64,000 bases of DNA, taken from NCBI GenBank assembly GCA_039621445.1, contig CP154954.1, positions 12,828,716-12,892,715 on the forward strand, in the 5' to 3' direction. The stretch is from Euglena gracilis. Lineage: Eukaryota. The position numbers and the translations under genes are program-made. The notes beneath the pieces are model-generated. The model saw only the letters and a program-made list of their open reading frames with translations, searched no databases and was not told the DNA's origin. Below are positions 6,782-49,971 of the stretch, in pieces; within the stretch, counting starts at the first letter, position 1; the number at the start of each line of letters is the position of its first letter.

Positions 6782-6789
6782 GATATATA

Positions 6790-6875: not shown

Positions 6876-6882
<7 letters not shown>

Positions 6883-16240: not shown

Positions 16241-16402
16241 ATGTTTCACATCTCTTCTTCTTGTGCCTCGCTGTGCCTGCATTATCCCATTATCCTTGTC
16301 GCATCCCCGGCGAGCAACTGCTGATTCTTGCATTCTGAGTCTACAACACCACAGATTGCATCACGGCACACCACCTGTCCCACTGTCGGCCTGTGCACAA
16401 AA

Positions 16403-16620
16403 CTGGTTACCTGAACCTCCCTGGAGCCTCCATGGAGGCGCCCTGGAGGCTGGTTACCTGAGCCTCCCTGGAGCCTCCTGGAGGCTCCTTAAAAGGGAGC
16501 CTCCCTGGAGGCTGGTTACCTGAGCCTCCCTGGAGCCTCCCTGGAGCCTCCCCGGAGCCTCCCTGGAGCCTCCCCGGAGCCTCCCTGGAGCCTCCCTGGA
16601 GCCTCCGGCAGGTAACCTCC
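16403..16620 (+). repeat. 11-bp GGAGCCTCCCT tandem array, second block
   Basis: Directly visible; same orientation as 15127-15290. Confidence 0.9.
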
Positions 16621-21200: not shown

Positions 21201-24200
21201 TAATTTAGGGGGGAATATATCAAAAAATTAAATAAATTGAATAAATAAGTAAATAAATAAATAAATAAATTAATAAAATTGAAATGCCCTCAACAAATGA
21301 GTGGAGAGTGAGGGTTACGGTGGGGGGATTTCCGGGGCCGGGGTGGGCTGTGGGATTTCTTCTTCGGACGCAAATCGGTGAACTTTGGTCCAGATACGGT
21401 CAAAAGTGGGTGTTTGGAGGGTGGATGTTTGGTTTTTTATTCCACTTCTTTTTACCTTGAATTTTTCAGCTGAAAAAGGGCGGGGGTCCAGCCAGCACCT
21501 CTGCAGCCGGACGGATGGACTCCCCTTTGGGGTCCAGCTGTACCTTTGGGGTCAAGAAAACTCACACACATTTCACACACATTTCTTTTCAAGTGTGCTG
21601 GACAATTCCTGAAAGCGGGGGGTATGCCCAGAACTTCAAGTTGTAGATCATGCTCCCAGATACTGCCTGTTTTGCTTATTTACTATTTTGGTTTAATTTG
21701 TTTGATTATTTCGATTTATGTCATATTTTTATGATTACTGTGATGATTTTCTTATTGCATATGTCTGTTATTTATTTAAATTATTTTTTTTTATTTTTGT
21801 GGTTATTCTTATTTTTTGTTGACTTTTTTGTCGTATTCCAGTTATTTTACTTCCTTTTTCATAGGCAATATGTTGCACCAGCCACTCTGGAGCTCTTCCA
21901 CTTTGCCCTGGATCTGCCAGCGTGAAAAAGCATAAAAAATGTTACAAAAAAACAGAAATTATTCGAAAGTAACCTTCACATTCTGCAAAAAAAAACCAGG
22001 TCACCCCCCCCACCGAGCACTGTCCCTTCGACGGCGGGGGGCATGTCACAGGGGTAAAGGTCGCACACTCCACACGGATAATGCAAGGGGGGGGGGGCAA
22101 AATGCCATCTCTACGGGAACTCCTTTGCGCTTCTGCTATGGCAAGCACCTTGGTCGAAAGCACGTTCCCCCGTTGTGGGGAGGTACACGTCCCCGTGGGT
22201 TTGAAAGGCCTCCATGGCGGCTCTGTTTGAATTTGCGAAACTTTCTCGACATTGCTCTTTTGCTTGCAATTTTTTTCCATGCAGGGGAGCGGTTCATACA
22301 GCACTGACCGCTTCACAATTATTAGAACCGGAACAAAATAATCTTTGTCATTCTCCCAAACAAAATCACTGGAATCGCGGAAATTTGCTGGTGAAGCGTC
22401 CCACGCGCGGGCTCCCGCCAACACATTTGACGGTTCAGCGAGGTCAAACCAGCACACTGCGCCCGCAAAGCGGTCAGGGCTGGGGGGGGGGGGGGGGGGC
22501 CTGATGTAGCCCGGAGGCAACCCCATGGCAGGCTGGGAGGGAGAGTCATTCCACCAGTGGCACACTAATGATTGCAAGAGGTGTGCCCCCCAAGCACACA
22601 ACAACGGTATCGGTGCCCCTGGCATTTCAAGGCTGAAATGCTGAGAAGTATGGTTGGACATTGATTGCGTAGGTTGGTGGAATTGCATCCCTGGGGTCTG
22701 TGCATCACCTAACGTTTTCTTGAGCCCGAGGGGACCTTGTCCCCTGGTCGAGCTACACTTTGTGTGGCTGCGAGACGAAGCTGTGATGGACCGAAAAAAA
22801 TATTTTTGGGCTCATCCGAAATTCTTTTTAACGAGGCAAAAAAATGACCAAAAACAACAGCATTTTTAAATGCATTTATATTTATCACCTCAAAAGATTG
22901 GCTGAAAAATCCCAACCAACCCAACTGTATTTGGACTTTGTTGGTTTTACCAGCCGTGTCCAGCTGCTGGACCCCTTTAGCCAACACTTTTTTCCAGCCA
23001 ACACTTTCTTCAGTCGGGGAACCCCCAGCAGGTACTTAAAGAAGACCTCTGTTCAGAAATCCCTGCGACACCGCAACCTTTGAGATGCAGAAATACTTAG
23101 AATATGAAAAAAAAAATTACACAAGCAGCATCTGGGAGCAGGCACAGAGCAACGTCACTTATATTTTCGCTTTTGAGCAGCAATATTTCATCAACTACTA
23201 ACTTTTTTTGCAATTATTTGGAAGCCATAATATGTGCTGCGTCTTCTTCGTCTTCGTGGCACACCCCATCTTGTGGCCTGTGGGACGGTTCCACTTTTCA
23301 CTTTCAGGATTTGCACTAGTGGGGGTTGTTGGCGGGTGTGGGGGCAAATTCGCCCGTGGAGGCGCCAAACGACTGCAACCAGTTGCATGGCTTGCGAGAA
23401 TGACATTTTTTCCCCCTCCCCTGGAGCATGTCCCAGGCAAATTTCCGACCATGCTTGTGCTTACCGACCGGGGGGAGGTGGGGGGTGGGGGGTGCTATAG
23501 GGTGCCTGCCCCTAGCAGGCACGCCCCCCGGCGGGTAGGGGTCCGGGGGGGACCCAGAAAATTTCAGGGAAATGGAATTTTCCGGGCCCCCCAAAGGGCC
23601 CGGGCCCCCGCCCCACCAAAAAACCCCCCCCCCCCCCCCCCCCGGTGGGGTCGGATCGGGTGCTATGGGGTGCCTGCCCCTGGCAGCCCCCCCCCCCCCG
23701 CCATGGGGTAGGCACCCGACTGAGCACACGCCTGCTTCCGACCCCCCCCCGAGGTCCGCTGCAATATTTTACTGAGATGTGGTCCAAAAATGGTCAAAAG
23801 CAGGTTTTTTTGAGCCCTTAATTCTCATTTGCCCTATCTCATCAATCTCATCAATTGGGGGCAGGGTGCCCAGCCAGTGCGTCTCCAGCCAGACCTCAAC
23901 ATCCTCCATCAATTACCAACGTCATTCCCCTTCCGTTTTTTTTGTGTGTGGACGTTTCATTTTTTGACGGTTCCTCCCGGGAAACAGGTCTTAAATTACG
24001 AAAGTTCACCGCAATTATAAAACAAGCAAATTTTTTTGTCATTTCCCGTACCATTCACTTGTCACCAAGCACCTTTGGTCATCCAGAATTCTAGGCCCAG
24101 TCATGCTCAGTCACGCCCAGTCATGCCCGGTCACGCGCGTTCACAACCAGTCCACGCACAGAAATGCCAGTGCCAGGAAAGGAATTTGCCATAAGTGGTC

Positions 24201-25940
24201 AACAGAGGGCAAAACGTGACCGAAAATACTCAAAAACATGCATAGGGACAAAAATGGGAGAAGAAAGGCTAATTGTGGCCAGTCACGCCCAGTCACACCC
24301 AGTGAAACCCAGACGCAGAACCATAAATTACCAAAACACCTGTGTGACCACACCCCGGGGGGAAGTTTCAAGAGTTGGTGGGCGGGTTGGGGCCTCTGGA
24401 ACCCCCCCCCCCCCACGGGGTGGGGTGCCCATGGGTCAGAATTTGGCCCAGCCGAAGGACGGGGCGGAAGATTTAGTTCACCTTCTTCGGTTTATTTTGG
24501 CCGGAATCTGGGAGGGTAGGTGGTTGGTTGACCACCCCGGGGGTCATGGGTGGGTGGCTTTTTGAAAAAAGTGTGTGGATGGGTTTAGGCCCGCCCCGAC
24601 CCACCGCGGGGTTACTAAGTGAATCCATGCACGAAACCCCACTAATGAGTGTCATCAAAGCCAGTCACGCCCTGGTGCCCAGTCGTGCCCAGTCATTTCA
24701 TAGGTAACTGTTAAAGACAAGTGTGCCCCTGGGGAAAAAACACAGATGCCGCAAAAATAAACATATAGCGGAGCACACGAACCTCACAACTTCGTCTGGT
24801 TGAATGGGCCAATGTCAAAGGTGGGACCGAGAGAAAACATCATCGTGGTTCGAACTCCTGTGTGTTTGACGAAAACCGTTTGAACATAAACAAACCTTGC
24901 GAAACGAACTCCGCAGCAAAGCAGTGGACCAACAGGCACACGGGCAAGCCCAAAAAGTTTGGGTATAGCCAGCAAGAGCCAAAAGCAAAGGAAGCTATGG
25001 TCAACAAGTCCATGGAGGCAACTACTGAGCAGGATACCCTGCAGCTCGCGCCACTTCCACACCTCAATGGTAGCAAGCTCGCCGCACGGCTTCCGGACAG
25101 CGACTCCCAAAGGAATGGGGAGAGACTTCTTCGGAAACATAGTTTTCGGGGTTTCGGGTGAATTCTTTCGACTCCCAGTATACCAAGCTTCCATCAGTAT
25201 TCGACTCACCACGTTCAAAAACTACGACAAGTGCGCAAAATACACACCCTCGTGACCCAGCAGGTTTGACTTCAGGATTAACTCACCAATTCAGCAACTG
25301 AAGAAGCCTGGGCCCGAAGCAGGGGAAAGCGTGGGAAGCTGTACAATTAGGTGTCGGCGGGGGGCGATTGGTTTATGGACGAAAGCTGGATGAGTCCAAC
25401 TTCCAACTTTCAATTTCCAAAAGCCAACCTCCTCCTTGTCCAGAAATTGAGGAAATCGAACACAAAAATACTCCCCCCCCCCAAATAACCCCCCAACGTA
25501 CCATTCAGGAGAAAGCAGAAAAAATTTGGGTGGATATAAGCATTTTGAGGGGAACGCACATTATTGAGGAAAATGGGGATACACAACAAATTTTGTTTAG
25601 GTCACCCAGATAAGTTTGACTTCCCCCAAAATGTAAAGCCCCCCCCCCCACGCTGAGGATCTTGAAATCCCAGCAAAATACAAAGTTTGGGGAGCTGAAC
25701 ATTGGGGGGCTGGTTAGCTGCAAGTAATATTCTCATTCCGATGGACCATCGCAACGCAATGTCCAATCCGACCCAAATAAAAAAGACTGCCACCAGTGGT
25801 AATGGGGGACGTTTCAGCGGGTTGCCATGGTTCCACGAAGAGTTGGAAGGGGAACATGACACGAAAGCTGCATTGTGCCATTTCTTCCGATATCTTGTCC
25901 GTCAAGCAGTAACGGTTCACGCCTGACCCACCACTTTCCA
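18247..25940 (-). repeat. Inverted repeat 1, right arm
   Basis: Reverse complement of 8686-16383. Confidence 0.98.
18390..19030 (-). repeat. 18-bp minisatellite, mirror copy
   Basis: Reverse complement of 15600-16240. Confidence 0.95.
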
Positions 25941-25945
25941 TGACC

Positions 25946-26908
25946 TGGACCATGACCTGAGCAGGGGGCAGGTCCGTCGGCCTTGCCAGGAGCACGTCAA
26001 CGACGTCATCACCGAGCTGAAGAACAATCTCCCGCAGGAGCTGATGCTCACTGGGTGGCCGGAGAGAGGAGCCCACCCTACCTCCCTGTGTTTTTGTCTG
26101 CTTTCCCGAGGTGATATTTCCACTCACTCCAAATTATATGCAGAACTGATTCGGATTACTTTTATATTTCTTCATTTTCCCCCCTGTTTTTATACACTGC
26201 TTGCGTAAAGGTGGGTGAATGCAAATTTCTCTGTGGCATCCTTTGCACAGCTGCCGGGAAGTGGGTCATACTGAGTGGACAACATCGTTTCCTGGCCGCG
26301 GCAGCCATCGCCGACGCCGCGATCGCCGATGCGCCCCCGGCCTTCACGGAGAGGTTCCAGTGCAAAGTGGTGAAGGAGAACACCCACACAGGAGTGCCAG
26401 CAGCTGCCCGGCAGGCTGCAGGACATGGACGGGAATGTGATGGACATGACGCTGGCACCGCCTGCACTGGCTCCTAAAGGAGGACACCTACAACCGGGAG
26501 GCCGCTGAAGTACATGGGGTGCCCTACAACTCGATGAAGACGGAGCTGTTGAAGACCGTTTACAAGAAGACGGGCTGTTGGGAGACGGTGGATAGCGTCC
26601 TGGTGTGCTTGGTGTTGGCATCATAATACCTGCAGAGGATGAGAAACATGTCTAAATGGACAAAAATAATGTCCATTATGGTAATGCGTTGATAGACAAG
26701 AATATAATTTGAAATGTTTCCCCGCTTCAATTTCATTCTGATGTGGTTGTTTTCATCCTCTCAGGGGACCTGGGTGAAGGCCATGCTCCCGGTGACGGAG
26801 TGGGTGCAGCAGTAGATTCTTTTTAACTGAGAAATGCAAATCCGCTATACAACTTACACTTGATACTTTTTTCTTTTCAAATGTTTGGCATATTTAATTT
26901 GTTTGTTG

Positions 26909-26965
<57 letters not shown>

Positions 26966-27686
26966 TTTTTGCGGACCACTCTGGCTGAACATCTCCGGAT
27001 TCATTCCAGAGGGGACGGAGGCGACCCCGGCATCACCCACGGAGGAGGAGCCCCCACCCAAGCAGGGTGGCCGGGGGGGCAAAGGAGTCCAAATCCAAGG
27101 AGACTAAAGAATCACAGGAAAAGCCCAAGGAGAAAGAGTCCAAAGACAAGCCGCACAAAAAGGTCAAAGACACATTCAAAAAGGGCGCTCGGGGGTCCGC
27201 CTCCTCGCAGCCAGCCCGACACTCCGAGTCGTCCCTGGAGCCGCCAGAGCGTGTGGCGCACAAGGAGTGGTGCAAAAGTTCTTGACAATGTTCATTGAGT
27301 CATTCATATATGCCTTCATCTTTATTCAATAATTATTCATATAATTACTTTTTATTATTGAGGAAATGTGTTTCCGCTTTGTTACCAAATTGCAAATTAC
27401 ACCTATTTTAAAAATGTCTTTCATTCAGGACTGAATGCTGTTTGGACATTTTCCTTGCTTGTTTCCTTTACAGAATGAGGACGACGAAAGGTTTTTCTGC
27501 AAAACTCCGGTTTCAGTCTGATGTTACTCTGTTACCAGCTTGCACCGCCTCTCTGGTGTCGCGGAAGCGGTCCGCCCTGGAGAACATCCAGGAGATGATG
27601 GTTGACGAGGACTGAGTGGCCAAGGCGGCTGCGGTGGCAGCAGGCGGCGGGTGCCGCCGGCGTGGGACAAACGTCATCGCACTGTG
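25946..27686 (+). pseudogene. ParB/Srx-fold gene, 5'-truncated duplicate
   Basis: Exon-like blocks DHDLSRGQVRRPCQEHVNDVITELKNNLP and GKWVILSGQHRFLAAAAIA...ERFQCKVVKENT (SGQHR at 26274-26288), then a K/E-rich exon; frameshifts present. Confidence 0.65.
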
Positions 27687-28874
27687 ACCCCAGAACCCCG
27701 GATCCCAGACACCAGACAACATCACACACGTACCCGCACCCCAAGCACACTCGTGTCGATCGTTTTGTTTCTGTGTCTCTTTGGCATGGCTACGGACATC
27801 GAGGGTGCCTGGGGGGCATGGTCGGATATTCACCTGAGTGCCTAGACAAGAACATAAATAAATACTCTGTTTTTGGGTTCTGCTTTAGGATGCGTAAAGA
27901 CTGACTGTTGAATGTTGTTATGACACAGTTTTACTTCTCTGGGCTGTTTCAAATTTCAGTGATTGTAATGTAATTTCCCATTCAGATGGTCAATGGTTCT
28001 TCTGATGTACACAATTTGTCACTTTTTTCTGGCCAAAAAACATTCTGTTGGGTTGAGGAAACGGAAAACCGCTTCTTTAACTTGTGTTTTTCACAACCAT
28101 TTCCTCGTCACCTCCAAATAACCGTCCACTTCGATCGAGGACAGAGGAGCAGAAGCTCTGTATTGTTCTGTGTTGTATTGCTTTGCATTCCACTTAGACT
28201 GTCTTAAGCCTTGTATGTCAATTATGTCCTTCCGATAATGCATACAATTACTGCTGAATTTGTCTCGTTTCTGTTACTTTTATAACTGTTCAGCATTTCC
28301 TTCTGAATGTAATATTGCTTGGTTGCAGTCGTACATCAATATTCCATTTTACACTATACATTTTCTGATGTTTTTGAAAGTGGTTTTCCGCTTCCTTTTT
28401 GTTTTGCGAAAAATGTATATGTTTTGTCCAGATTACATCAAATATTATTGCTTGTGTTCACTTTCTGTTGCACATCTCCAATTTTTGAAAGCGGAATGCG
28501 ATATTTACCGCTTCCTGTTTTCTTCTATTCTTCTATGTTTTTGCTTCTTTTCTTTTCTTCTATGTTTTTCTGTTTTCCCCTCCTTGCAGGGGCTTTGCAT
28601 TCTTTCCACGCCGATGACAGCAGAAACCAGGTGTGAATCTACAATTTCCTTTTTTTTTTGAATTTTCCCTACCGATTTCGTTCATTTTCATACAATTTGA
28701 AAAAAATGGGTCATTTCGAGTGTATTTTCGACTTTATAGGACTTTGGTACTGCAAGCCAAATATCCACTGAGATTGGACGAAATCGGGACCTCTTAAAGA
28801 AACTTCAAAAACTGTTTTTGGAAGCGGTTTTCCGCATCGTCTGCCGTTTACAGAGCGTCAGAAATTTTGGGCAA
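25946..28874 (+). repeat. Inverted repeat 2, left arm (~2.93 kb)
   Basis: Reverse complement of 31895-34834; near identical apart from small indels, e.g. in (TG)n at 26916-26962. Confidence 0.98.
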
Positions 28875-28889
28875 TTTACGCCGCCTAAG
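28869..28889 (-). mobile_element. Left TIR of the Academ-like element, preserved only at the end of the inverted copy
   Basis: rc = CTTAGGCGGCGTAAATTGCCC, 17/21 identical to the right TIR; followed by TCAAT (rc ATTGA, the TSD core) at 28890-28894. Confidence 0.8.
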
Positions 28890-30880
28890 TCAATACACTG
28901 GCTGAAAAAAAAACCCCAAGCAGATGGCTTTGGGCTTTTTTGTCTCCTTTCGGGTGCAGACCGGTCCCGACCGGCATCTGATTTCTGATTTGGACCCACC
29001 CCCCTGGACCCCCACCCTCCAGGGAGTCCAGCCAGCACTGTTTTTCCAGCTTTAACAACAACAAACCCAACTGTCAAATTTTCATGAATAGAATTTCTGG
29101 AAAAAATACTTGAAGGAAGGAAGATGCATCCAATTTATCCCCAGAGTTCAATTTTAGCCGATTTTGCCAGTTTACCATTTTTGCCACGGTGAGCCATATT
29201 TTCCAACAACTTTCAAATAATTTTGGCAAATTGAAATTGAAAACAAATTTACCCATCCTTCAAAACTTGCTCCATCTGAGCAATCCATCTTGGTGTTCTT
29301 GTGTTCCCACTCTATTACCACTCTATTACCACCAAGAAATGGCTTCAAGCAGCACTGTCTTGAGGGTTTACAAATCACATGCAAATTGTACCATCTCACC
29401 AAGGCTCCAGGCAAAAAAAAGAGATCTGCATCCCAGCCGGGGGAGCAGGTGGTGTCTGTAGAACGGGTGCTGGCTGGACCCTCCACGAAATGGTTCCTTT
29501 TCGGCTTAAGACTACCCCTACTTCAAGCACAAAACAAATGCTTTCTACATGACCCTGAGACAAATTGAGTTTTGTTGGCCACATCTCCTTTTTTTGGGTT
29601 TCTGAATATCAGAATGGAAGAAACCAGAGACCCAAATAGCTGCATTTTTTTTTCCAATCATATTTTTATCTTTGCATCCTCCTCAAAGCATCTTCTTGAC
29701 ACTTGACACATTTTCTGCTTCGCCCTGTGGAGGCTCTTCCTGATCAACAACGCCATTATTTTAACTTCATCGATATTCAGCAACACTTTACTCTGTTTCA
29801 AACACCAGCAGGCTTATTCCCTTCGCAAGATTAAACTTGCAGTGTCAACAAGGAATCAGAGAATGGGGAGGGGGAGAGGGAACAGAGCAGAAAAGCCTCA
29901 CACTCACTAACTACAAATCAGCTGAAAATATTCATATTTGGCGCTGGGGACACTTCCGCAACACGTGCAACACATGTTTCGCGCACCGCATGGTGCCGCA
30001 AATGCACCACGTGTGGCACTCCATGCCACCATGCTGCAGCCACCACAATAGGCCAAAAGAAATGGCTAAAAAACTGTTCAAATTTGAAAAATTGTGAAAT
30101 TGCAAAACAATGACCAAAATAGTGACCAATAGTAGCATCAGAAGTTGTTTAAATGGGAAACAACACCAAAAAAAAAGCAAAAAAACCAAAATTTGGCAAC
30201 AAACAGCCGAAGATGAAAAAGGAGTTTAAAAGCAGCCAAAGGTGGCCAAAATGAGTGATCCTTTCAACACTGTGCAGACGCTGTGACGTGGTGCACGCGG
30301 TGCCACACGAGGTGCGCGTGGTGTGGCAGCGTCCTCCCCCCGCCCTGGTCATAACCCCACCTACGGCGATCGGCCCTGGTTGGCTCCAGTCTGCCCTGGT
30401 CGGGCCGACTAGGCCAATGGTGCCCCCAAACAGCTTCACCTCTACGACGACAACAATTAAACTTCAGGAACAAAATTTCCAGGGGAAAAAAGACATGCAA
30501 CCGAAAAAAAAATGATTGTTGACCTGCATTTATTTCTGCAAATCACTCTCTGGTGGAAGCACTTGACAATGGCGTGCGGCAAACCCATGCAAAAAAAAAA
30601 ACGGTCGCTGAGTCTGCGTACTATTTTGCCATATATTACCAAATTGTGTGCAATCCATGCAACCATAAAAAGCACACCCATCCGTGGAGGTTGCTACCAC
30701 CCCAACCTTCGGCTAAACACGGCAGTCGCCTGCACGCCGCCCGAGCAGCTCTGGAGCCCGTCCACTCAACCCGCGCATCGGCACCGCAAGGCAGCGACAG
30801 AGTGGAGAGCATTTTGTTGAGAGTATGACTAACCTGGGGGCGGATGGAATGTTGCAAATGCTGTTGTAAGCCAGCAACCC
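28890..30880 (-). repeat. Old segmental duplicate X1 (inverted relative to 46150-47985)
   Basis: 29170-29400 vs rc 47440-47690; 29930-30250 vs rc 46825-47160; 30530-30860 vs rc 46170-46520. Confidence 0.88.
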
Positions 30881-31894
30881 AAAAAGCAAAGCTAATGGCA
30901 AAACAACTGAATCAGGGCGATGATAAATGAACCCCCCCGGGGGGGGTCCAGTTAAGAGGCAGGAAAATTTGGGCTGGGCTGGAAAAAAGCTGCTGGCTGA
31001 CGGTCCCAGGCTGGAGCTGAGCCTGGACAACTTTTTCCCGACCCATTTTCGCCGACTTCCGTACATCTAAAAGCCAAAATCTGTTAACGTTTCATTGATG
31101 AGGAGAAGGGGGTCCGGGGCTGGAAAAAGGCTGCAGGGAAAAGGCTGCTGGCTGGCTGGACCCTTCGGGGGGTCAAAATTCAAGACCCTTCGGGGGGTCA
31201 AAAAAGCAACGTCCTGAACTGAATTATAATGAAAAACAACTACAAATGAATTGAAAATTGTCATATTACCAGAAACAGAATTCGAAAAATGAAAAGCCAG
31301 AATACACAAATCAAAAAACTGCTTTTGAAGCAACAACAATGCTCCCCTCAACTCCTCCGCGAGCAGCCCCCCCCCGTCCGAGCTATTTCCACAATGGGAA
31401 GGGAATAGCTCACTGTTATAGCACTTTCATGAAGAAAATCTTAAAACAGTGCTCAAAATTGACCTTTTTTGGAAGGTTTCAAACATCACTTTTTGGCAAA
31501 TGTGCTTGGTATTGACCATTTTTTTTGCGAAAATCCAAAAAAAGTTGCCAAAAATAACACCTTTTTGGGCTTTCCCGCATCGGGGATGGGGAACATCAAC
31601 ACAACAAAGACATTTATTTTTCAAAATTGTTTCTTCAAAAAAAAGCAATCAATAAACACCAAAAATGCCGCAACAAAAGAACACGTGACGCAGATTTGAA
31701 AAATGATATTGTCGGTTTGCCCAATTGCATTCTTATGCAATTACTGCTGATGGAATTGGTCTAAAAAAACGCGTGCCCCCAAAAAAGTCGAAAATATGCA
31801 TTTTTTTAAAAATTATTACGATTTTGGATTCTGCAAAAAAAATGTAAACCATCGCAGTGTAAAAATTTGCACTCCCCCTTGGTGGGGGTTGGGG

Positions 31895-33806
31895 TTGCCC
31901 AAAATTTCTGACGCTCTGTAAACGGCAGACGATGCGGAAAACCGCTTCCAAAAACAGTTTTTGAAGTTTCTTTAAGAGGTCCCGATTTCGTCCAATCTCA
32001 GTGGATATTTGGCTTGCAGTACCAAAGTCCTATAAAGTCGAAAATACACTCGAAATGACCCATTTTTTTCAAATTGTATGAAAATGAACGAAATCGGTAG
32101 GGAAAATTCAAAAAAAAAAGGAAATTGTAGATTCACACCTGGTTTCTGCTGTCATCGGCGTGGAAAGAATGCAAAGCCCCTGCAAGGAGGGGAAAACAGA
32201 AAAACATAGAAGAAAAGAAAAGAAGCAAAAACATAGAAGAATAGAAGAAAACAGGAAGCGGTAAATATCGCATTCCGCTTTCAAAAATTGGAGATGTGCA
32301 ACAGAAAGTGAACACAAGCAATAATATTTGATGTAATCTGGACAAAACATATACATATTTTTCGCAAAACAAAAAGGAAGCGGAAAACCACTTTCAAAAA
32401 CATCAGAAAATGTATAGTGTAAAATGGAATATTGATGTACGACTGCAACCAAGCAATATTACATTCAGAAGGAAATGCTGAACAGTTATAAAAGTAACAG
32501 AAACGAGACAAATTCAGCAGTAATTGTATGCATTATCGGAAGGACATAATTGACATACAAGGCTTAAGACAGTCTAAGTGGAATGCAAAGCAATACAACA
32601 CAGAACAATACAGAGCTTCTGCTCCTCTGTCCTCGATCGAAGTGGACGGTTATTTGGAGGTGACGAGGAAATGGTTGTGAAAAACACAAGTTAAAGAAGC
32701 GGTTTTCCGTTTCCTCAACCCAACAGAATGTTTTTTGGCCAGAAAAAAGTGACAAATTGTGTACATCAGAAGAACCATTGACCATCTGAATGGGAAATTA
32801 CATTACAATCACTGAAATTTGAAACAGCCCAGAGAAGTAAAACTGTGTCATAACAACATTCAACAGTCAGTCTTTACGCATCCTAAAGCAGAACCCAAAA
32901 ACAGAGTATTTATTTATGTTCTTGTCTAGGCACTCAGGTGAATATCCGACCATGCCCCCCAGGCACCCTCGATGTCCGTAGCCATGCCAAAGAGACACAG
33001 AAACAAAACGATCGACACGAGTGTGCTTGGGGGTGCGGGTACGTGTGTGATGTTGTCTGGTGTCTGGGATCCGGGGTTCTGGGGTCACAGTGCGATGACG
33101 TTTGTCCCACGCCGGCGGCACCCGCCGCCTGCTGCCACCGCAGCCGCCTTGGCCACTCAGTCCTCGTCAACCATCATCTCCTGGATGTTCTCCAGGGCGG
33201 ACCGCTTCCGCGACACCAGAGAGGCGGTGCAAGCTGGTAACAGAGTAACATCAGACTGAAACCGGAGTTTTGCAGAAAAACCTTTCGTCGTCCTCATTCT
33301 GTAAAGGAAACAAGCAAGGAAAATGTCCAAACAGCATTCAGTCCTGAATGAAAGACATTTTTAAAATAGGTGTAATTTGCAATTTGGTAACAAAGCGGAA
33401 ACACATTTCCTCAATAATAAAAAGTAATTATATGAATAATTATTGAATAAAGATGAAGGCATATATGAATGACTCAATGAACATTGTCAAGAACTTTTGC
33501 ACCACTCCTTGTGCGCCACACGCTCTGGCGGCTCCAGGGACGACTCGGAGTGTCGGGCTGGCTGCGAGGAGGCGGACCCCCGAGCGCCCTTTTTGAATGT
33601 GTCTTTGACCTTTTTGTGCGGCTTGTCTTTGGACTCTTTCTCCTTGGGCTTTTCCTGTGATTCTTTAGTCTCCTTGGATTTGGACTCCTTTGCCCCCCCG
33701 GCCACCCTGCTTGGGTGGGGGCTCCTCCTCCGTGGGTGATGCCGGGGTCGCCTCCGTCCCCTCTGGAATGAATCCGGAGATGTTCAGCCAGAGTGGTCCG
33801 CAAAAA

Positions 33807-33869
<63 letters not shown>

Positions 33870-34834
33870 CAACAAACAAATTAAATATGCCAAACATTTG
33901 AAAAGAAAAAAGTATCAAGTGTAAGTTGTATAGCGGATTTGCATTTCTCAGTTAAAAAGAATCTACTGCTGCACCCACTCCGTCACCGGGAGCATGGCCT
34001 TCACCCAGGTCCCCTGAGAGGATGAAAACAACCACATCAGAATGAAATTGAAGCGGGGAAACATTTCAAATTATATTCTTGTCTATCAACGCATTACCAT
34101 AATGGACATTATTTTTGTCCATTTAGACATGTTTCTCATCCTCTGCAGGTATTATGATGCCAACACCAAGCACACCAGGACGCTATCCACCGTCTCCCAA
34201 CAGCCCGTCTTCTTGTAAACGGTCTTCAACAGCTCCGTCTTCATCGAGTTGTAGGGCACCCCATGTACTTCTCAGCGGCCTCCCGGTTGTAGGTGTCCTC
34301 CTTTAGGAGCCAGTGCAGGCGGTGCCAGCGTCATGTCCATCACATTCCCGTCCATGTCCTGCAGCCTGCCGGGCAGCTGCTGGCACTCCTGTGTGGGTGT
34401 TCTCCTTCACCACTTTGCACTGGAACCTCTCCGTGAAGGCCGGGGGCGCATCGGCGATCGCGGCGTCGGCGATGGCTGCCGCGGCCAGGAAACGATGTTG
34501 TCCACTCAGTATGACCCACTTCCCGGCAGCTGTGCAAAGGATGCCACAGAGAAATTTGCATTCACCCACCTTTACGCAAGCAGTGTATAAAAACAGGGGG
34601 GAAAATGAAGAAATATAAAAGTAATCCGAATCAGTTCTGCATATAATTTGGAGTGAGTGGAAATATCACCTCGGGAAAGCAGACAAAAACACAGGGAGGT
34701 AGGGTGGGCTCCTCTCTCCGGCCACCCAGTGAGCATCAGCTCCTGCGGGAGATTGTTCTTCAGCTCGGTGATGACGTCGTTGACGTGCTCCTGGCAAGGC
34801 CGACGGACCTGCCCCCTGCTCAGGTCATGGTCCA
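31895..34834 (-). repeat. Inverted repeat 2, right arm
   Basis: Reverse complement of 25946-28874. Confidence 0.98.
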
Positions 34835-35150
34835 CAACCAGCTGCCCGGCTGCAGGGTTACGTCAGTTCTTTCTGGATGAAAATATCCATTTTCCAAGTT
34901 GATGAAGCGTGCTTCCGTTTCGTTTTGAATCACAAATTATTTTTTTGCCTTGCATCGCAACAATAACTGAAACTTAAAGTTGACAACCATGACAATTCAA
35001 TTGAGCTTCGCATTTCTTTTGTTCAGCAGAAGTGCAGCAACCAATGTAATTTTGTTCCCTCTGCAGCCACATCTTCTCGTCCTCCAGCAGCTTCGGAACT
35101 GACTGTCCCTAGACGTCTCCCTTTGACAACTTCATTGGAGGAATGCGTAT
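33086..35150 (-). pseudogene. Multi-exon ParB/Sulfiredoxin-fold domain protein (frameshifted)
   Basis: Exons: VPKLLEDEKMWLQREQNYI (~35040-35110); QLVVDHDLSRGQVRRPCQEHVNDVITELKNNLPQELMLT (~34725-34870); GKWVILSGQHRFLAAAAIADAAIADAPPAFTERFQCKVVKENT (~34395-34530); RLHWLLKEDTY...KTELLKTVYKKTG; K/E-rich tail. Motif order matches the ParB N-terminal domain (Q-x-R, helix, GxxRxxA, closing beta strand). Confidence 0.65.
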
Positions 35151-35619
35151 TTGTCTGCGGGGACAAACAGAGGACAAATATGGACAAATATGGATATAAT
35201 CAACCAATCTCTATGAAATCAAGCTGAAATGAACATAATTTTTTCATTTATTTCGAAAAGGTGTTCTAAAATGCAGCCACGTAGCTTTTCCCCCCCACAT
35301 TTCCAGAGTTGTTTTCACACACACCCTACTTTTAAGTCATTTCCGAAACGCAGCCAAATAGCCTTTTTCCCCTACATTTCCAGTGTTGTTTTCACACACA
35401 CCCTATTTTTAAGTCATTTCCCGTACCAAACAGCACCGTCAGTAAAAAAAAAGAGGAATTTTTCTCACCGTGTTTCCTGCCAAGACTCAGTAGGTTCTTT
35501 TCGGCCTCTGCATTGGGTAGAAGTACGTCATCGTGTGAACCCAGCTTGACCCAAAAGTTGTAGCACGACAGACCACCTCCAAAAGTCACTGCACCAAGAT
35601 GCCAGTGACACACCACTGC

Positions 35620-38060
35620 TACTCTCCGGGTGGACCGTACAGGGACTCCGGCGGCTCGTATATGCTGCTACCCTCCTCCATCTCCCCCAGTGAGGCTAAA
35701 GACTCTGCCACCTCTCCAGCGTCGTTGTCACCGAAGTGGTTCTCCGCTTCCTACATGTCATGCAAGATATTTCCGCTTCATCAGTGGAGGCAGTGGTGGA
35801 ATTTCTCCTGCTTCAGCCGTGCTTCTTCTGTGTGCCAAGAAGGTGGAGATGGCCTCTTGTCTTTCCTGCAGAAATTCACACAACCAACGTTGTTCTTGAG
35901 CCACTCCTCCACGTCCGATGCGAGGCACTGCCCTCGGATGAGGGTCTGCAAAGAATGCCGCAGGACAGGCAGCAGCTGCTCAGTGGTCATACGTGTTGGA
36001 AGAGGTTCGGGTGCCATCCAGGTGGAGAAGTTCTCTGGGTCCAGCAGCCACTGCACGGTGGTGCTGTCCCTCTTTGGAAATGGACGTTCTCCGGGGCTTC
36101 CAACCAAGCCACGCACACGACGTGCCATCTCCTGTACCAACTGCCGCCAAAGGCTACCATGGCTGTGATGAGCCTCTCCGGAGGGGGCACCAAGGTTCAG
36201 GAACAGCTGTAGCGTAACGTCGAAGCTGGTCACGCGCGGGTTCCGCTGGCAGAGGACAGCCTCGACAGCATGACCTCGCAGCCGGGCAGCCGAGCAGCCG
36301 TCACATCCAGTCTTGCCAGACCAGCAGGGCGAGGGAGATGGTCCGCCGGTATTCCGAGGGCGGCCTTCCGGGAGTCATCAGTCGTTCCAGGTGCATCAGC
36401 AGCAGGAGGCATTTCTGCAGCACCAGACGAGTGGTGGTGCCCTTCACCTCGTCCTCCGGTCTCCCCCTCCAGGTACACTGTCGCACCTCGTGGCCCAGGT
36501 GCAGCAACGCTGGAGAACACCAGGATATTCCACAGCCTCTGCAACAGCTGGTACGGATGCAACCGGAGCATCTCCTGTTGTACAGCTCGCGTAGTCCCTG
36601 AGATTGTCAAGTCCGTCATTTGTGTAGTCAATTGTCAACTGAATTGCAGAAAATTTGTTATTCACATTCACAATTCACCGCCTAACAATCAAAGCAAGCG
36701 GAAGTCCACTTCACTGCGATTTTGTGCCACTCAGATCGGGGCATGACACACTCGCAAGACAACAGAAGGCTGGCAAACAGCTTCTCCATGTACAGCACTT
36801 TCTAATGGCTCCGCAGACTGCACGTCAGGTGGTGATCACCGGGGGACACTTCCAGGTGGGCCAGGACCGGGAAGAACGCCCGGTACACGATGGCCACCAT
36901 GTGCTTGTACGCGTGCCAGATACCGCACAGCAGGCCAGATAGCGGGACATGTAGTACCGTGATGCCGATGCGGAGTACAGCAGCTGCAGGCACTGGTTGT
37001 GGATGTTCTCATCCACCACGGAGTCTGGCGCCGAGTCAGGTGCTGCAGGGATTTGGCCGTCTGCAGCACAAGCAGGAGGTCCAGGTTGGCTGACACCACC
37101 TGCTCGGTCAGTGACAGTGGACGCCACTGTCACCGACATGCAGGGACCGCATGTCGGTCCGCCGACATCCAGCGGCACCCTGATCGTCTTCTCCGTCAGC
37201 TGCATCCATCGGATTCGACCCACGGCCTGGTGCAGCAGCGGCAACGCAGTACAGCAGGAGGAGGCCACAACTTCCAGGTTGCCGGTGAGCTCGCTCAGTT
37301 CTGGATGTCCTGGAGACACCGGGAAGCTCACGGAACGTGTCCTCATTCCCTGGCACAGCAACACGTTCTCCAGCTGCGGAAATCATCCCCAGTGAGTAGT
37401 ACATGTGTTACCTGCCAGGCAATCATTTAGCACCTCAGACCCAAAGATTACCATCAAATTATCATTTGTCGGCAATCCGCTTCATACTGCCAAATAGCAA
37501 AAATAAATCTTGTTTCTGTATTGCTAAACGTGATATGAAACTCATTTAAATATGGTGATTGTTCATACCCAACCTGTGATTGTATAAAGTACCCTGCACT
37601 GATCCGAAAGCCGTGAGGTTCTGGCTCAGGTTCGGCATCGTTGGGCCTGTTCCCCACCAGCAGCCAGCAGAAGTTGTCCAGCCAGAGGATGATTTGGTGG
37701 TTCCACAGGGAGGATGTTCCGCACATCCGCCGCTGCCCGGGCTGCCACCGGCTCCTCCGTGCGACCCACAATACCGGTGTGTCGCAGTGTTCCCTGCGTT
37801 CCTCTCGGAAGCAGCTGCAGCGTCCGCATGCTGGGAGTGTTCTGCGTCATCGTACTGGGGTCCGCGAAGGGCTGCGCCTGGCGATGCAACGTACACCACA
37901 CAGTGTACGTCCCAGTGGCCAACCACCGAGGATGGCGAGACACGACCGCAGGAAGACCTCCCGCACCGCGTCCACTGTGTGAACGCCGTGCATGGTGTGA
38001 ACGCCGATTCAGCACCATGCAGCACAGTGCCACTATGGCTTGGGCCCCTGCCCCTGTGTC
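35620..38060 (-). pseudogene. Academ/DUF6589-like DDE transposase, intron-containing and frameshifted
   Basis: Stitched across frames in order: IILWLDNF (~37670), IRVPLDV (~37170), VSANLDLLLVLQ, VVDENIHNQCLQLLYS (~37010), LCGIWHAYKHMVAIVYRAFFP (~36915), EYRRTISLALLVWQDW (~36330), GCEVMLSRL (~36275), acidic tail. This fits a D...D...GxxH...Y...E pattern. Further 5' exons may extend to ~39025. Confidence 0.6.
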
Positions 38061-40510
38061 ACGTCATGAAACAGGTCCCATCCGGAACCTGGCTGACCAC
38101 AATGTAAATAAGCTCGAAGGTCCCGAATGTTCAGGACCAGTTCCACGGACAAAAAAGTGAACACATTATGGCCAAGGAAGAGGATCACCGCTTCCTTATT
38201 GTAATTTGCAAACCTGGAACTCTAGAGACATAAAAAAAAGTTTATCTGTTTATGTATGAAGCAGTTTTACGCTTCATTTGAATGCTACTGGTGGTTTTTT
38301 AGGTGCTGTTTGGCAAGTGTACCTTGATTTCAGAAACAACAGGTGCAACATGGCATTGGTTTTTTTAATTGGCTCATCCGGAGCACGATGCAAGGTAAAA
38401 TCCTTCCCAAAACACAAGTACCCGGGAATTTACCATGAATTGGTGTGGATGGTGGAACAGCCGCCGAAACGTTCAGTAAAAATCTTTGCGAGACAGAAGC
38501 GTAGGGTTGGTTTCGGTAATTTTTGTTTGTTTTTTTTCTGCAAGCGGAAAAACGCTTCCCTGAAACTCGCATTTCGAAGTAATACGCGTATTTTGTATTT
38601 TGTTCCAACCGCGCGTGGTCGCTGTCGTTACTCCAACCTGCATGACCGCCTGCGTGACCACAGTCACCACCTCCCCTGCGGCTGCTGACGTGATCACTGT
38701 TACTACCTGTATCTTGATCTCAGTGTATACGTGCTGTGCCAACTTCCCTGTGATGAGTGACAGGGACACCAGGAAAACTGCTTTTGGTATATACTGGTGC
38801 TGTAAAAAATGCGCACAAGCCGTCTTGATGATCCCGACTGCCTGCGTGATCACAGTCATTACCCTCATATACGGCTTCATATCGAAGCGGATTCCCACTG
38901 CCTGTGAAAGCAAAAAGTAGACCCGCATTGGTGTGGCACAGCAGACATTGTGTGGAAGGGGTGGGCAGTCCCCGCCGCACAGGGTCCGTGCCCACAGCCA
39001 GTCCGGTCCGCTGAGGCCATGCCTGTAAACTGAATGTGTGTTGTTTGGGCAGTTTAGTATTTTGTGGTCACAGCGCTTGGTATGAACAATCAAAATCGCG
39101 TTTCAAGTTGTAGGTGAATCAGTTTTCCGCTTCATTTTTTCGATTTATAAAACAAATGTACAGGTAAAAATAAAGTGATGGTAAAAGCTCCTCGAAGTTC
39201 ACGGTTGCGGAGGATTTCTCATGGACTCGATGAATTCTGTATGGAATGCTTAGAAACATACACAATTTGCTGTGGACTGATTTCGCTTGTGGCCCACCGC
39301 GCGTATTTACTCAACTATGCACCTGGAGAAGAACAATGTGACCATGATGTTTTGACAGTGCTTGATACTGGTAAACAATTGTGTACTTTGTGAGTAACAT
39401 TTCAATATAATTGTTCGCCAGTTACAGAGGAAGCGGAAAAACACCTCTTGTTCAGTTTACTGCTGTGTTTTGTGTTGATCCGGAAAGGGGTTGGATTGAA
39501 ATGTTGTTAACCGTTCAACGATTGATTGAAACAGAAAGTGCACTCAGCATTCTTCAGCACGTATTGTAGTTTGTGAATCCAGAACAACGGGGAGCCTGGA
39601 CTGTACGCCTGCCCGGTCCAGCGAAAGCCGTAACCGAACCCCTGGCGACCATGCACCGTTCAGGGGTATGGGGAAGTGAAATGGACCCGGTCCAGCCTGT
39701 CCCCTTTTTTGTTTGCAATTCAGCGTCATTTGGCACCACATTTGTGTTTCTTACTGTTTCATTACGCAGAAAACCGCTTCCTCAGCCGTATATGACCTAT
39801 TTTTCATCGACCTACGAATGTGTCTCGCACACCAATCAACCGCTAAACTGCTGAGTGCACCGTCAACCCCGAAGGTGAGTGACCGGTGCATTTCAGGTAC
39901 AAGATGATTTTGTCTACGGTAGTGCAAGGCGGGGAGCCACGGGGCTGCCGGGTGCCTGCTTCCGCCGCATGCGGCTCTGGCAGCCAACAGGTATACCCGA
40001 CACCGACGGTGGCCAACGTCGGTGTCAGCGAGAGTTAATGACAAAGGATGAACGTGGTCTCTCCTCTTTTTCAATTTGCAATGATGTGTTTCTCTTAATG
40101 TTGGTGCTGTTCTGTTTTCAGCAATATCATGTGTTGCAGTATCCGTGAAGCGGTATTCCGCTTCGTTGCTTCGTTGTGGTTTATGCTTTATTTTGCCATT
40201 ATATTTTTTGGTAAGTAGTGTACATAGCAAAACTAGTTAAAGCCACTTAGTACCTATCTATCTGTTTCTAAGGTGTTTATTGGGGATGTTTGTATGCTTA
40301 CAGACATATTTGCTACTATCTTTTAGTGTTACGTATTTCTTTCTGATTTTACATTAAAATATATTTTAAAATTCATTGAAGCGTTTTTCCGCTTCATCGA
40401 CTCCATCGTCGTATACGTGTAAAAACTTTCTTCGTCCAGTGCAATTTAAAAAATTTGACCGTTTTTGAGAACAATTTTACCGGTTTCTGGAATGCAGTCA
40501 AAATTTTCAT

Positions 40511-40531
40511 GGGCAATTTACACCGCTTCAA
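40511..40531 (+). mobile_element. Right TIR of the Academ-like element
   Basis: GGGCAATTTACACCGCTTCAA followed by ATTGA (40532-40536); contains a CCGCTTC half-site. Confidence 0.8.
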
Positions 40532-41616
40532 ATTGAGGTGAAAACCCCAAAAACAACCATTTTTGGCCATTTTGGACCCTTTTCATCAATTTTTTTTCAC
40601 GTTACAGGCCGGTTTTCATTGGCCTGCTGAGGTTTTATTGCCACTCACCCCCCTGGGGGGCGTCCACTATCCGACTGGCAGGTGTTTGCTGGAAAAACAG
40701 TTCTCCCAAGGGGGTAGGGGTCCACCTTAAGAAATTCCGGGCGTAGATTTACGACGCGGCTGAATTAATCAAAAAAGTCATTAAATTGAATTATCGAACA
40801 TTCAAAATATTGTGTGCCTAAAAAAGTAGAGAGCATGGCGCATTCTCATTCTCTGACAAATTCCCAGAGCTCTGATGGCCAAAAAATGAACGAGAATGTC
40901 ACAAGCATCATTGTGTGGTTTTGAAGCATGATTGTTTTGTGTTGGCACACCCTGCTTAATTATTTGCTGGCTGGATTCAGAATGAACAATGGAACTATCA
41001 GGAGCCATGTAAGGGACCACATGCACAGTAGTCTAGGGCTGCTGAAGCTCTTGCAATCCCATCACCGCCAGTTGGCCGTCCAAGTCGGCAGAACTTTTGC
41101 AGAAAGTTGGTGCGGTGTATTTAGGTGCATTTAATGACATTTGAACTCCAAGCTTCCAAGCCAAAACACCCTTGTTGGGTTTTATACCAATTTTATAAAT
41201 ATTTCATAATTATCATATTCCCGGGCTCTGGGTTTCTAGATTCTAGGTCCAATCCATCTGAAATCCAATTTTCCCCTGTTTTCTTTTTATCTTTTATGCC
41301 AAACAGGGCTCCTGGTTTCAAAGTGCCAAGCTGTTTTGGTTGACCCAGTGCGATTGAACCCAATGTGTGTGATTGAGCATGCAACTTTTTAATACACCAC
41401 CGTTGTGTGACGAAAAAAATTGCCTTCCCCCCTTTTTTGGTGGTTCTAGTAACGCGTCTCGGTCTTGGTTTCTTTCTGTATTTTTTTTTGTAGAATTTCG
41501 CCAGGCAAAAAATTCATTACAGCAAAGTGCGAAACGTTCGATGAGTCATCCCCACTTTATTGTTCCGAAAAAGCAAGGGCTCTTCAAGTGTGCGTGTGTA
41601 TGTGAGTATGAGTGTG

Positions 41617-41649
<33 letters not shown>

Positions 41650-43085
41650 TTATGGTGTATGTACAAGCATAAATAGTTTGGGCGTCCAAAGTCGGGGGAC
41701 AGAGAGCGCATCATTTGGGAGGTTCATTATTTGATCAGAAAAAATCATATTGAAAATAATGATATCCGCACTTTTTGATATTCATTTCATTTTTTTCGAT
41801 ATTTCCCATATTTGTTGGTCCAGTATATTTTTCCAAAATATGTTTGTTCTTTTATGTGTCTTTTTTTTGAAGAAGAAGATTGATGTTTCCCCCTGGCCAG
41901 GGTCCATTATTTGCGGATATTTGGAAGGGGCGTGCATGGTGGTGATGAATGGTGAAGTTCAAAATTATTATTATGTGGCAGGGTGAAGTTTGTGCCCCCC
42001 AAGGTGGTCTCAGGTATACAGAAGGATAGTGTTACGGTTGCAATTTTCCGGTCTAAGATTTCTTTGTATATTTCTGGACAGCAGTATTTTATGAAAGCTG
42101 TGTATGAATTGCACAGAATGTTTATTCTCGAAAGGGGCAGGGGATTGGTTAGGAACAGGTTTAGGGTTCCCCCCCGTTGGCGTTCTTCCCTCGTAGATTT
42201 GCTCGATGTCAGACTGGTTGAGTTCTTGCCAACAGTGTCGGGACAATCAGAATTCATAACAGTAATGGCAATTGTCTTGTGTCAGAAGCAGGCGGCTATT
42301 CCAGACATTGGGAGCAGAATGACCCTGGATTTGCCTTGCACACCCCACTCCCTCCAGCCCAACCAGCTCGGACAGCAGTGTTGGGACCTCCGGTCCCTTC
42401 GGCTGGAGCCCTCCGCTCACCCTGGCGGTGACCGTGCCACCCATGCCTCCACGGTGGTCGTGCCGCTCCATCGATTGCCACCGAATCCGCCTTATCATGA
42501 AAACCACACAACTGCAAATACTGGAATTGTTGAAGAAAATGAAGGGATCCTTAATTTGAGAAACAGAAAGGAGATGGAAAATTACTGGTTTTATCTTACG
42601 CTTCCGGGAGCATACTGTAATGTGCAGTGTGCAGAGGTATTATATTAAAATTTTTATAATAAAATTTTCATATCAATTAATTATTTACAATATTGTTTGT
42701 GATAGCATATACCAATCGTTGGAGGAGCGAATTTGTCAGGCAAGGACCGTTTTCAGTAAAGGTCAAGGTAAACCTTGCCTTCTTTGCTTGCGCACTGATA
42801 AGTTTTTTCCAGCTTTTTTTGAATATTTTTTCAGGCTCTCAATCATGTCTCAGGCTTTTTTACGACAGTGCAATTGTGTGTGCCAAACAAATGTTATTGC
42901 CGAATTGTATGCCACGCCACAGATAGCCCCCCCCCCTTCTGGAGAAGCCCCCCCATTTCACAGCAGAACCCTCTGACGAGGGCTGCCCCACTGAATTACA
43001 AAAAAAACCAGGTTTGTTTCTGCAGCAATGATGTCCTGAATTGTACAGTGTCACCTGGGAATCTATCCCCCCCCTCTATATCTCT
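40532..43085 (+). repeat. Old segmental duplicate Y1 (direct paralog of 47981-49910)
   Basis: 40560-40700 vs 48030-48185; 41000-41090 vs 48520-48616; 42350-42530 vs 49080-49260; 42830-43065 vs 49680-49910. Confidence 0.9.
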
Positions 43086-43239
43086 CTCTGTGTGTGTGCC
43101 TGCGCGCATCAATATTTCTTTCTTTTGTTGGAATTTCCAAAGTTATCTTTAGGCAGCCCTGAATTAAAGATGTTATTTCTTTGCTGCCCCGAAACGCCTT
43201 TTCGATCTCTTTGTGTCACGTTGCTCAATTTCTTTTCAT

Positions 43240-49100: not shown

Positions 49101-49909
49101 ACAGCAGTGTTGGGACCCACGGTCCATTCGGCAGGAGCCCTCCACTCACCCCAGCGGTGGCCGCACCACACATGCCTCCACGGTGGTCGTGTGGCTCTAT
49201 TGATTGCCACCTATTTCGCCTTATCTTGAAAACCACACAACTGCCAATACTGGAATTCTTGTCCAGCTGAAGAGTGAAGAGCTGGAGGGATTCTGAATTT
49301 GAGAAATAGAAAGGCAATGTAAAAATAACCGGTTTTCTCCTGTGCTTGCGAGAGTAAACCGTAAAGTGCTTGTTTTTAGAGGATTTGAATGATTTTTTTT
49401 CTCATCAGGTAATACGTGTGGCATAACAATTGGTTATTTACAACATTGCTTGTGGCCGTATATACAAATCGTTTGAAAAGTGAAAATGCCAGAAAAGGAA
49501 CGTTTTCAGTAAAGGGAAGCCTTGACAAGGCTGGTAATTGATCTTGCATTTGGGGGGGGGGGTTGCGATATTTTGCGAGACATTGCACGGCCTTGCAATA
49601 TTGGCGATATTTTCAATTGTCTTCTTTTCTTGCATACTGTCATGTTTGTTTTTTCATCCAAATTTATTTTTTGAATATTTTTTTCAGGCTCTCAATCAGG
49701 TGTTAGGCTTTGTCACGACGGTGCAATTGTGTGTGCCAAACAGATGCGATTGCCGAACTGTATGACACGCCACAGATAGCCCCGCTTCTAGAGGAGCCTC
49801 CCCATTTCACAGCAAAACCCTCCGACGAGGGCTGCCCCACTGAATCACAAGACAACCAGGTACGCTTCTGTGACAATCATGTCCCAAATCGTACAGTGTC
49901 CCCTGGGAA

Positions 49910-49910
<1 letters not shown>
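46150..49910 (+). repeat. Old segmental duplicate X2+Y2, uninterrupted (contains the empty insertion site)
   Basis: Left part matches rc 28890-30880 and right part matches 40532-43085; they join at a single ATTGA (47981-47985). Confidence 0.88.

Positions 49911-49971
<61 letters not shown>

Follow-up and report, generated by a model that had tools for sequence, protein, structure and literature searches.

Dispersed 18-bp palindromes of a Euglena gracilis DNA transposon as candidate recognition sites of an element-encoded dimeric protein

The En/Spm (CACTA) transposons encode, apart from the transposase, an accessory protein, TnpA, whose short binding motif is repeated many times in subterminal DNA, in either orientation, and which probably brings the element ends together, and the EnSpm/CACTA group, which includes Plavaka, is defined by CACTA-type termini and a target duplication of approximately 3 bp. 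Here we describe an 8,652-bp DNA transposon of Euglena gracilis with a palindrome of its own, scattered through its non-coding DNA and echoed at its tips, which lies in a stretch of 64,000 nucleotides (hereafter the window; contig CP154954.1 of assembly GCA_039621445.1, positions 12,828,716 to 12,892,715 of the forward strand). Two other described systems are close to it. The VANC proteins of the Mutator-like VANDAL transposons of Arabidopsis bind a family-specific motif that has accumulated in non-coding regions, and act against silencing (PMC5735166). The PAG3 genes of red-algal Plavaka (EnSpm), Zisupton, and Mutator-type transposons encode a ParB-like N-domain and have arrays of inverted repeats beside them, and their products have been proposed to bind their own transposons (10.1101/2025.02.11.637652).

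A scan of the window for GAAGCGG-N4-CCGCTTC (18 bp) with up to two mismatches yielded 16 matches, all of them in 28058-40395, against 0.19 expected from dinucleotide-preserving shuffles of the window (maximum 2). A single copy, at 40147-40164, is perfect. With up to three mismatches there are 21 matches, 20 of which fall within the element or its duplicated arm and one outside, at 55389; in the remaining 52.4 kb of the window, a good part of which is AT-rich and non-coding, there is no site with two or fewer mismatches and one with three. The spacing of the half-sites is strict: with the same half-sites and tolerance, a 4-nt spacer gives the 16 matches and each other length from 0 to 12 nt gives none or one. 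Exact heptamer half-sites number 18 in the 8.6-kb element versus 7 in the 52.4 kb outside, and words from the motif rank first in enrichment among the 7- and 8-mers when the element is set against the rest of the window. An earlier note on this DNA, made from the letters alone, had reported at least 16 copies, one perfect copy at 40147, a fixed 4-nt spacer, and no full copy outside the element and its arm; these counts and the enrichment inside versus outside hold within the window, with the reservation that three of the 16 matches (28058, 28377, and 28821) are copies of those at 32696, 32377, and 31931, made by a 2.9-kb inverted duplication. The match at 26711, inside the duplicated arm, is in the same way the duplicate of a three-mismatch site at 34050. 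The independent set comprises 13 sites with at most two mismatches and three sites with three mismatches, given here with the lone half-sites (none of them is assigned a strand):

31931-31948, palindromic site, 1 mismatch; duplicate at 28821
32377-32394, palindromic site, 2 mismatches; duplicate at 28377
32696-32713, palindromic site, 1 mismatch; duplicate at 28058
34050-34067, degenerate site, 3 mismatches, in an AT-rich gap within the ParB-like gene; duplicate at 26711
34904-34921, palindromic site, 2 mismatches, immediately upstream of the first ParB-like exon that can be recognised
35733-35750, palindromic site, 1 mismatch, just beyond the last open frame of the large gene
36695-36712, palindromic site, 2 mismatches, bordering an AT-rich gap that separates coding blocks of the large gene
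38177-38194, palindromic site, 1 mismatch
38258-38275, palindromic site, 2 mismatches
38541-38558, palindromic site, 2 mismatches
38884-38901, palindromic site, 2 mismatches
39116-39133, palindromic site, 2 mismatches
39430-39447, degenerate site, 3 mismatches
39763-39780, degenerate site, 3 mismatches
40147-40164, perfect palindromic site, 0 mismatches
40378-40395, palindromic site, 1 mismatch, 115 nt inward of the right terminal inverted repeat
37477-37483, lone exact half-site, in an AT-rich gap of the large gene (approximately 37385-37590) with a coding block on either side
32255, 33202, and 35773, other lone half-sites from the exact-heptamer scan

Oriented by their spacers, the sites have the consensus GAAGCGG-TTTT-CCGCTTC, with T at 13, 12, 13, and 14 of the 16 oriented sites in the four successive spacer positions; the spacer, previously written as N4, is not arbitrary and represents a T4/A4 tract. 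The orientation of the tract is balanced (8 plus, 8 minus), and the centres of the two half-sites lie 11 bp apart across it, that is, approximately one helical turn. No tandem array of the motif was detected by Tandem Repeats Finder, the nearest two sites being 81 bp apart and the whole set extending over 8.4 kb. The sequences flanking different sites are unrelated to one another. Insertion of a miniature element, or its excision footprint, was considered as the origin of the sites and rejected, since there are no flanking duplications at any site and the flanks are unrelated.

The sites avoid the coding blocks. Their flanks (±75 bp) have a GC content of 0.40 versus 0.49 at random places of the element, and 5000 random draws never produced so low a value; bins with GC of at least 0.55 (33 of the 87 bins of 100 bp), which coincide with the blocks carrying protein-like frames, contain none of the 16 sites. 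The proposed location in AT-rich non-coding and intronic DNA of both genes agrees with these numbers: sites 34050 and 34904 lie around the small gene, and the large one contains site 36695 as well as the lone half-site at 37477. The idea that the motif covers the whole length of the element is right insofar as sites reach the gaps of both genes, but it was overstated, as the middle 5.4 kb contain four of the 16 sites, whereas three are in the left 0.9 kb and nine in the right 2.4 kb. Counted per AT-rich DNA, the density in these two terminal parts is 2-3 times that in the middle.

The limits of the element were obtained by alignment of both its flanks with a diverged empty site in the same window. 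In this paralogue of the flanks (75-84% identity), 46210-47874 corresponds to 30838-29022, reversed, and 48023-49938 to 40557-43091. The empty site reads ...TTATTGAGGTGG..., with a single ATTGA at 47981-47985 and without the element; in the filled site the same flanks are split by the insertion, with ATTGA on each side (28890-28894, reversed, and 40532-40536). Because the flanks are continuous at the empty site with its single ATTGA, and the 22-bp inverted ends agree in 18 of 22 positions, we conclude that the insertion is a transposon of 8,652 bp with a 5-bp target duplication. With inverted repeats, target duplication, and empty site, it is a cut-and-paste DNA transposon in the generic sense. 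The right tip read inward is TT-GAAGCGG-TGTA..., an exact half-site 2 nt from the end, and the terminal 9 nt of this end equal the half-site with its flank; the left tip retains five of the seven half-site letters in the same register. The half-site noticed earlier in the right inverted repeat is thus exact (40523-40529 within 40510-40531), but the start of the element, implied near 26711, had to be moved: the left end is at 28868-28889, inverted, and position 26711 marks the duplicated three-mismatch site. The limits derived from the empty site, the 5-bp duplication, the half-site at the tip, the T4/A4 spacer, and the lack of compensatory changes described below are new to the present analysis. 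The features are as follows:

25946-28874, minus strand, duplicated arm, element positions 16 to approximately 2955, with duplicate sites 26711, 28058, 28377, and 28821; part of the ParB-like gene is repeated in it
28868-28889, minus strand, left terminal inverted repeat, inverted by the fold-back, with a degenerate half-site (5/7); 18/22 versus the right end
28890-28894, minus strand, left target-site duplication (reverse complement of ATTGA); the flank runs into the homologue of 47772-47874
31895-40531, plus strand, main body of the element (element positions 16-8652), with both genes and all 16 independent sites
40510-40531, plus strand, right terminal inverted repeat, with the exact half-site CCGCTTC at 40523-40529
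40532-40536, plus strand, right target-site duplication, ATTGA
47981-47985, plus strand, empty site, one ATTGA in the diverged paralogue of the flanks

The best reading of the palindromes is that they are recognised as double-stranded DNA by a dimeric protein encoded in the element, because they combine two-fold symmetry, a spacing of one helical turn, independent decay of the two halves, restriction to the element, and exclusion from coding blocks. Double-stranded DNA is preferred to a hairpin since no compensatory changes between the two arms were found in any of the 13 imperfect sites. The element carries two genes that may provide such a protein:

34173-34862, minus strand, ParB_N-like gene, exons at approximately 34715-34862, 34333-34548, and 34173-34320, with frame breaks; motif GQHRFLA (GxxRxxA)
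35781-38058, minus strand, large multi-block gene, putative transposase, with frame breaks and no recognised family

A phmmer search with a 120-residue frame of the small gene against 1.84 billion representative proteins retrieved seven proteins at E ≤0.001, the best at 71% identity (E 5.5e-18). Six of them were aligned with the frame from the window, P0006, a repetitive protein of 362 residues that matched in short stretches, being omitted. All seven aligned rows share a block around G(K)YYILSGQHRF.AA, which contains the ParB-type GxxRxxA motif and in which GQH(R/K) is conserved. The Pfam profile ParB_N (PF02195) matched one of seven family members at its positions 49-75 (E 0.042, 14.3 bits versus a cut-off of 26.3), and TIGR00180 parB_part also matched one of seven (E 0.12). 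In a single hhalign comparison with phage P1 ParB, ATGKWVILSGQHRF was aligned on ATGKIEILDGSRRR (P 0.019, probability 2.4%), and the motif of the small gene falls on the GSRRR stretch of P1. An AlphaFold model of the family (pLDDT 72.4), limited to the second half of the domain by an intron that separates the upstream exon, has a strand-helix-strand-helix order around the motif. Taken from profiles and this model, the apparent ParB-likeness of the small gene is weak but consistent. Other searches added little: a word-index protein search gave no longer relatives of the ParB-like frame, a sequence search of solved structures gave nothing for either ParB-like exon or the family profile, PHROGs, NCBIfam, and PADLOC returned marginal rows only, tblastn of one family member against plasmids found no match, and a scan of public metagenomes with the family alignment gave 66 pattern matches, none of them confirmed.

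The large gene is called a putative transposase from its place in the element. It matches the Euglena gracilis transcripts EG_transcript_6996 (E 5e-36) and EG_transcript_16241 (E 2e-17) in EukProt, and it has no family in Pfam, NCBIfam, PHROGs, or PDB. A word-index protein search found no longer relatives, the ESM Atlas gave no usable lead for two of its frames, and the AlphaFold model of its core was unusable (pLDDT 34.8). Within the gene, a contig of run X19, which we guess to be an RNA run, skips 127 nt (37776-37902). With the cut shifted by one, the omitted segment is bounded by GT..AG when read on the plus strand, antisense to the gene; it represents either an antisense spliced transcript or a deletion variant. 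Between the two genes, at 35269-35421, there are two tandem copies of a 77-bp unit with 88% identity.

The element shares with En/Spm and its TnpA repeats a short motif in many copies, in both orientations and near both ends. It differs from En/Spm, and from the EnSpm/CACTA group including Plavaka, in its ends, which read TTGAAG... and CTTAGG... in place of CACTA and are bordered by a 5-bp duplication, ATTGA, and in having sites kilobases away from the ends. Bacterial and plasmid ParB-parS systems, in which short repeated or palindromic sites private to one replicon are read by a dimeric protein with a GxxRxxA N-domain, are comparable. However, the motif has no relation to the way in which box A and box B are annotated in P1 (NC_005856) and, as stated previously, bears no resemblance to the quoted bacterial parS consensus; no ParA partner was seen in the scanned frames; and the sites are distributed over 8.6 kb of a nuclear transposon rather than forming one centromere. 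Neither a Mutator-type transposase nor a VANC family was matched by either element gene in the Pfam scans. Similarly to VANC and VANDAL, a short family-specific motif extends along the non-coding parts of the element and is absent from coding ones, but the VANC motifs are non-palindromic, 8-9 nt long, and mostly in tandem, in contrast to the dispersed two-fold symmetric 18-mers of Euglena, and VANC is not ParB-like (PMC5735166). The likeness to PAG3 consists in a gene with weak ParB N-terminal similarity in a eukaryotic DNA transposon with its own repeated inverted-repeat units. In place of the tandem arrays next to the PAG3 gene, the Euglena sites are single, dispersed, and echoed in the tips; PAG3 also carries a putative 2OG-oxygenase domain, none of which was seen in the frames of the Euglena element, where small exons could hide it. 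PAG3 is hosted by red algae and the present element by a euglenid, and the two are likened here by description (10.1101/2025.02.11.637652). In the literature searched, no description of euglenid elements of such design was found, the one relevant item being the same preprint on Bostrychia (10.1101/2025.02.11.637652).

Four sequencing runs were compared with positions 31500-40900. In a DNA run, the summed contig depth, which is not a copy number, is approximately 80-190 over many AT-rich bins that bear sites and reaches thousands, up to 64,000, over the GC-rich blocks; because of this difference, the coding blocks appear to have many relatives at ≥95% identity and the non-coding stretches do not. 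The segment 39350-40291 has a summed depth of 9,000-64,000, above that of the large-gene core, and may hold either a short repeat of very high abundance or a 5' part that is conserved in the family. Among the 18 joints listed for the DNA contigs (36 endpoints), 15 endpoints lie within 13 bp of a site, whereas such positions make up approximately 6% of the stretch; the shorter sides of these joints have 20-36 letters only, and, most simply read, the motif also occurs in contigs that derive from other contexts. A contig of run X19 departs from the window 12 nt before the perfect site, with 17 of the 18 letters of the site, spacer included, retained and 5 of 11 upstream, which, as a single anecdote, favours conservation of the site among copies. 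Compared with the window, an independent DNA run is shorter by 2, 1, and 1 letters at 34270, 33029, and 38478, respectively, at full depth, and the duplicated arm agrees with it at 34270, where the frame break is absent from both; some frame breaks of the window are therefore probably assembly indels. A scan of public metagenomes with a 20-nt pattern from the inverted end found nothing.

We tentatively regard the palindromes as cis-acting recognition sites of one DNA transposon family, with a dimer of the small ParB_N-like protein as their binder. This protein is favoured because proteins of its kind bind private palindromes and because the same pairing was proposed for PAG3. Each 18-bp site would be bound by one dimer, with each monomer reading one GAAGCGG half-site and the two half-sites placed one helical turn apart across the T4/A4 tract. 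With sites in nearly every non-coding stretch and the half-site at the tips, the protein would mark the whole element as self, and such a mark may serve to gather the ends for the transposase or to keep the element free of host silencing. The sequence shows the sites with their geometry, their confinement to the element and absence from coding blocks, the half-site in the right tip, and the limits of the element; that the sites are bound by a protein, which protein it is, and what the binding does are all points that we infer.

Several observations weigh against the ParB_N-like protein as the binder. All ParB profile matches are below the family cut-offs, and the hhalign probability is as low as quoted above. 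Searches by Foldseek and VIA-align with the model, which comprises the second half of the domain because of the intron, retrieved no ParB structure. The small gene carries frame breaks in this copy; no ParA-type family was found among the 33 + 13 open frames of the region, from which short exons might escape, and no oxygenase in the downstream and scanned open frames. Two RNA runs placed hardly any reads on the element, 5 and 10, counted from approximately 5-6% of each run, and no RNA run was listed as carrying element sequence; the X19 contig is the only data point on conservation of the sites. Finally, the half-site at the tips and the density of sites near the ends fit a transposase equally well. 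The earlier proposal of operator- or parS-like sites for a dimeric element-encoded protein is supported in part: the symmetry, the 11-bp distance between half-sites, the specificity to the element, the non-coding location, and the half-site at the tip fit it, and the binder may be either the ParB-like protein, for which the fold searches gave no ParB match, or the putative transposase.

The protein of the large gene is nearly as likely a binder as the small one, given the half-site in the tips and the greater density of sites towards both ends, although taken by itself this explanation is also rather unlikely. According to it, the palindromes are internal pseudo-ends, or extended subterminal repeats, bound by the putative transposase with the ParB-like gene uninvolved; each site would consist of two facing tip-like half-sites, which could titrate or concentrate the transposase and help the ends to pair. 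The terminal 9 nt of the right end, the in-register remnant at the left tip, the two- to threefold density of sites in the AT-rich DNA of both terminal parts, and the accumulation of contig endpoints at sites among the joints listed all agree with it, and subterminal repeats that bind the transposase are usual in cut-and-paste elements. It is less compatible with the four sites and the lone half-sites that lie 2-4 kb from either end, in gaps of the genes, and with the fact that the inverted ends share at least 22 nt, of which the internal sites keep 7-9. Moreover, neither a family nor a DNA-binding domain could be recognised in the large protein, its core model has the low pLDDT given above, and its status as a transposase is itself putative.

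It is improbable that the sites have no present function and are decaying remnants of a palindrome once spread by slippage, gap repair, or small duplications. One of the 16 sites is perfect, and 9 of the 28 half-site mismatches are C-to-T or G-to-A changes at CpG, as expected of unselected and possibly methylated DNA; together with the frame breaks in the genes of this copy, these observations are what such decay would leave. On the other hand, the flanks of the sites are mutually unrelated, there is no tandem array, and a cause is needed for the strictness of the 4-nt spacer, for the T4/A4 tract, and for the agreement of the sites with the tips, while the decay of a dead copy is uninformative on function in live ones.

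A role of the palindromes as hairpins or cruciforms in single-stranded DNA or RNA, serving as processing, termination, or replication signals, is very unlikely. The perfect and near-perfect sites do fold into a stem of 7 bp closed by a loop of 4 nt, with energies of -8.3 to -4.5 kcal/mol and z of -5.5 to -2.3, with the site at 40147, as single-stranded DNA, at the stable end of this range (-8.3 kcal/mol, z -5.5). However, every mismatch weakens the stem, no change compensates for another, and the degenerate sites, including 36695, fold no better than shuffles; the sites are oriented both ways relative to the genes, eight in each direction, and no Rfam family matched in the 25-42 kb region, where a tRNA scan also found nothing. 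The explanation of the motif as a host regulatory element common in Euglena non-coding DNA is scarcely tenable given the single three-mismatch site in the window outside the element.

The left 2.9 kb of the element are present twice in the window: as 31895-34834, which lacks the first 15 nt, and, inverted, as 25946-28889, joined to the original flank. The arm and 31895-34834 align over 2,940 nt with 0 mismatches and 11 gap letters in four gaps, and because of this near-identity the duplication appears to be either very recent or a fold-back of the assembly. It adjoins a second inverted duplication of 7.7 kb (8686-16383 and 18247-25940, 99.7% identity). The junctions have the microhomology CCATGACCTG at 25940-25950, and one breakpoint is 15 nt inside the left end of the transposon; the two adjoining duplications reflect either genuine fold-back rearrangement at the end of a transposon or artefacts of long-read assembly. 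Another palindrome, AGCCTCC-NN-GGAGGCT, occurs 5-6 times in units of 60-75 bp at 15126-15290 and 16403-16606, with mirror copies at 19340-19500; its units adjoin a larger block of tandem repeats (15599-16243), and it may belong to another element as its private repeat. Much of the window is covered by an old segmental duplication (75-84% identity), from which the empty site derives:

254-7820 versus 55314-62849, first pair of the segmental duplication
29022-30838 (reverse) and 40557-43091 versus 46210-49938, second pair of the segmental duplication

A bolder version of the proposal, which we consider doubtful, is that a ParB switch of bacterial type has been co-opted by the DNA transposons of euglenids. 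Its protein would load at private parS-like palindromes, located in all non-coding stretches and at the tips of the inverted ends, spread over the element as a nucleoprotein coat, and thereby identify the DNA as self, either to the transposase or to the silencing machinery of the host. If this were true, a partition module would have been re-used as an identity tag of transposons, with its own palindrome for each family. More generally, if an element-encoded dimer reads the sites, a protist transposon labels its whole length with a private address, and not its ends alone. Such self-recognition was experimentally demonstrated only for VANDAL and VANC of plants, and for the red-algal PAG3 it was proposed from sequence alone. 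The euglenid case, with a simple 18-bp site, represents a directly testable pair of one small protein and one oligonucleotide, and would reveal whether ParB-type DNA clamps work in eukaryotic nuclei. Since the motif flags members of the family, it would also aid the annotation of the very repeat-rich genome of Euglena.

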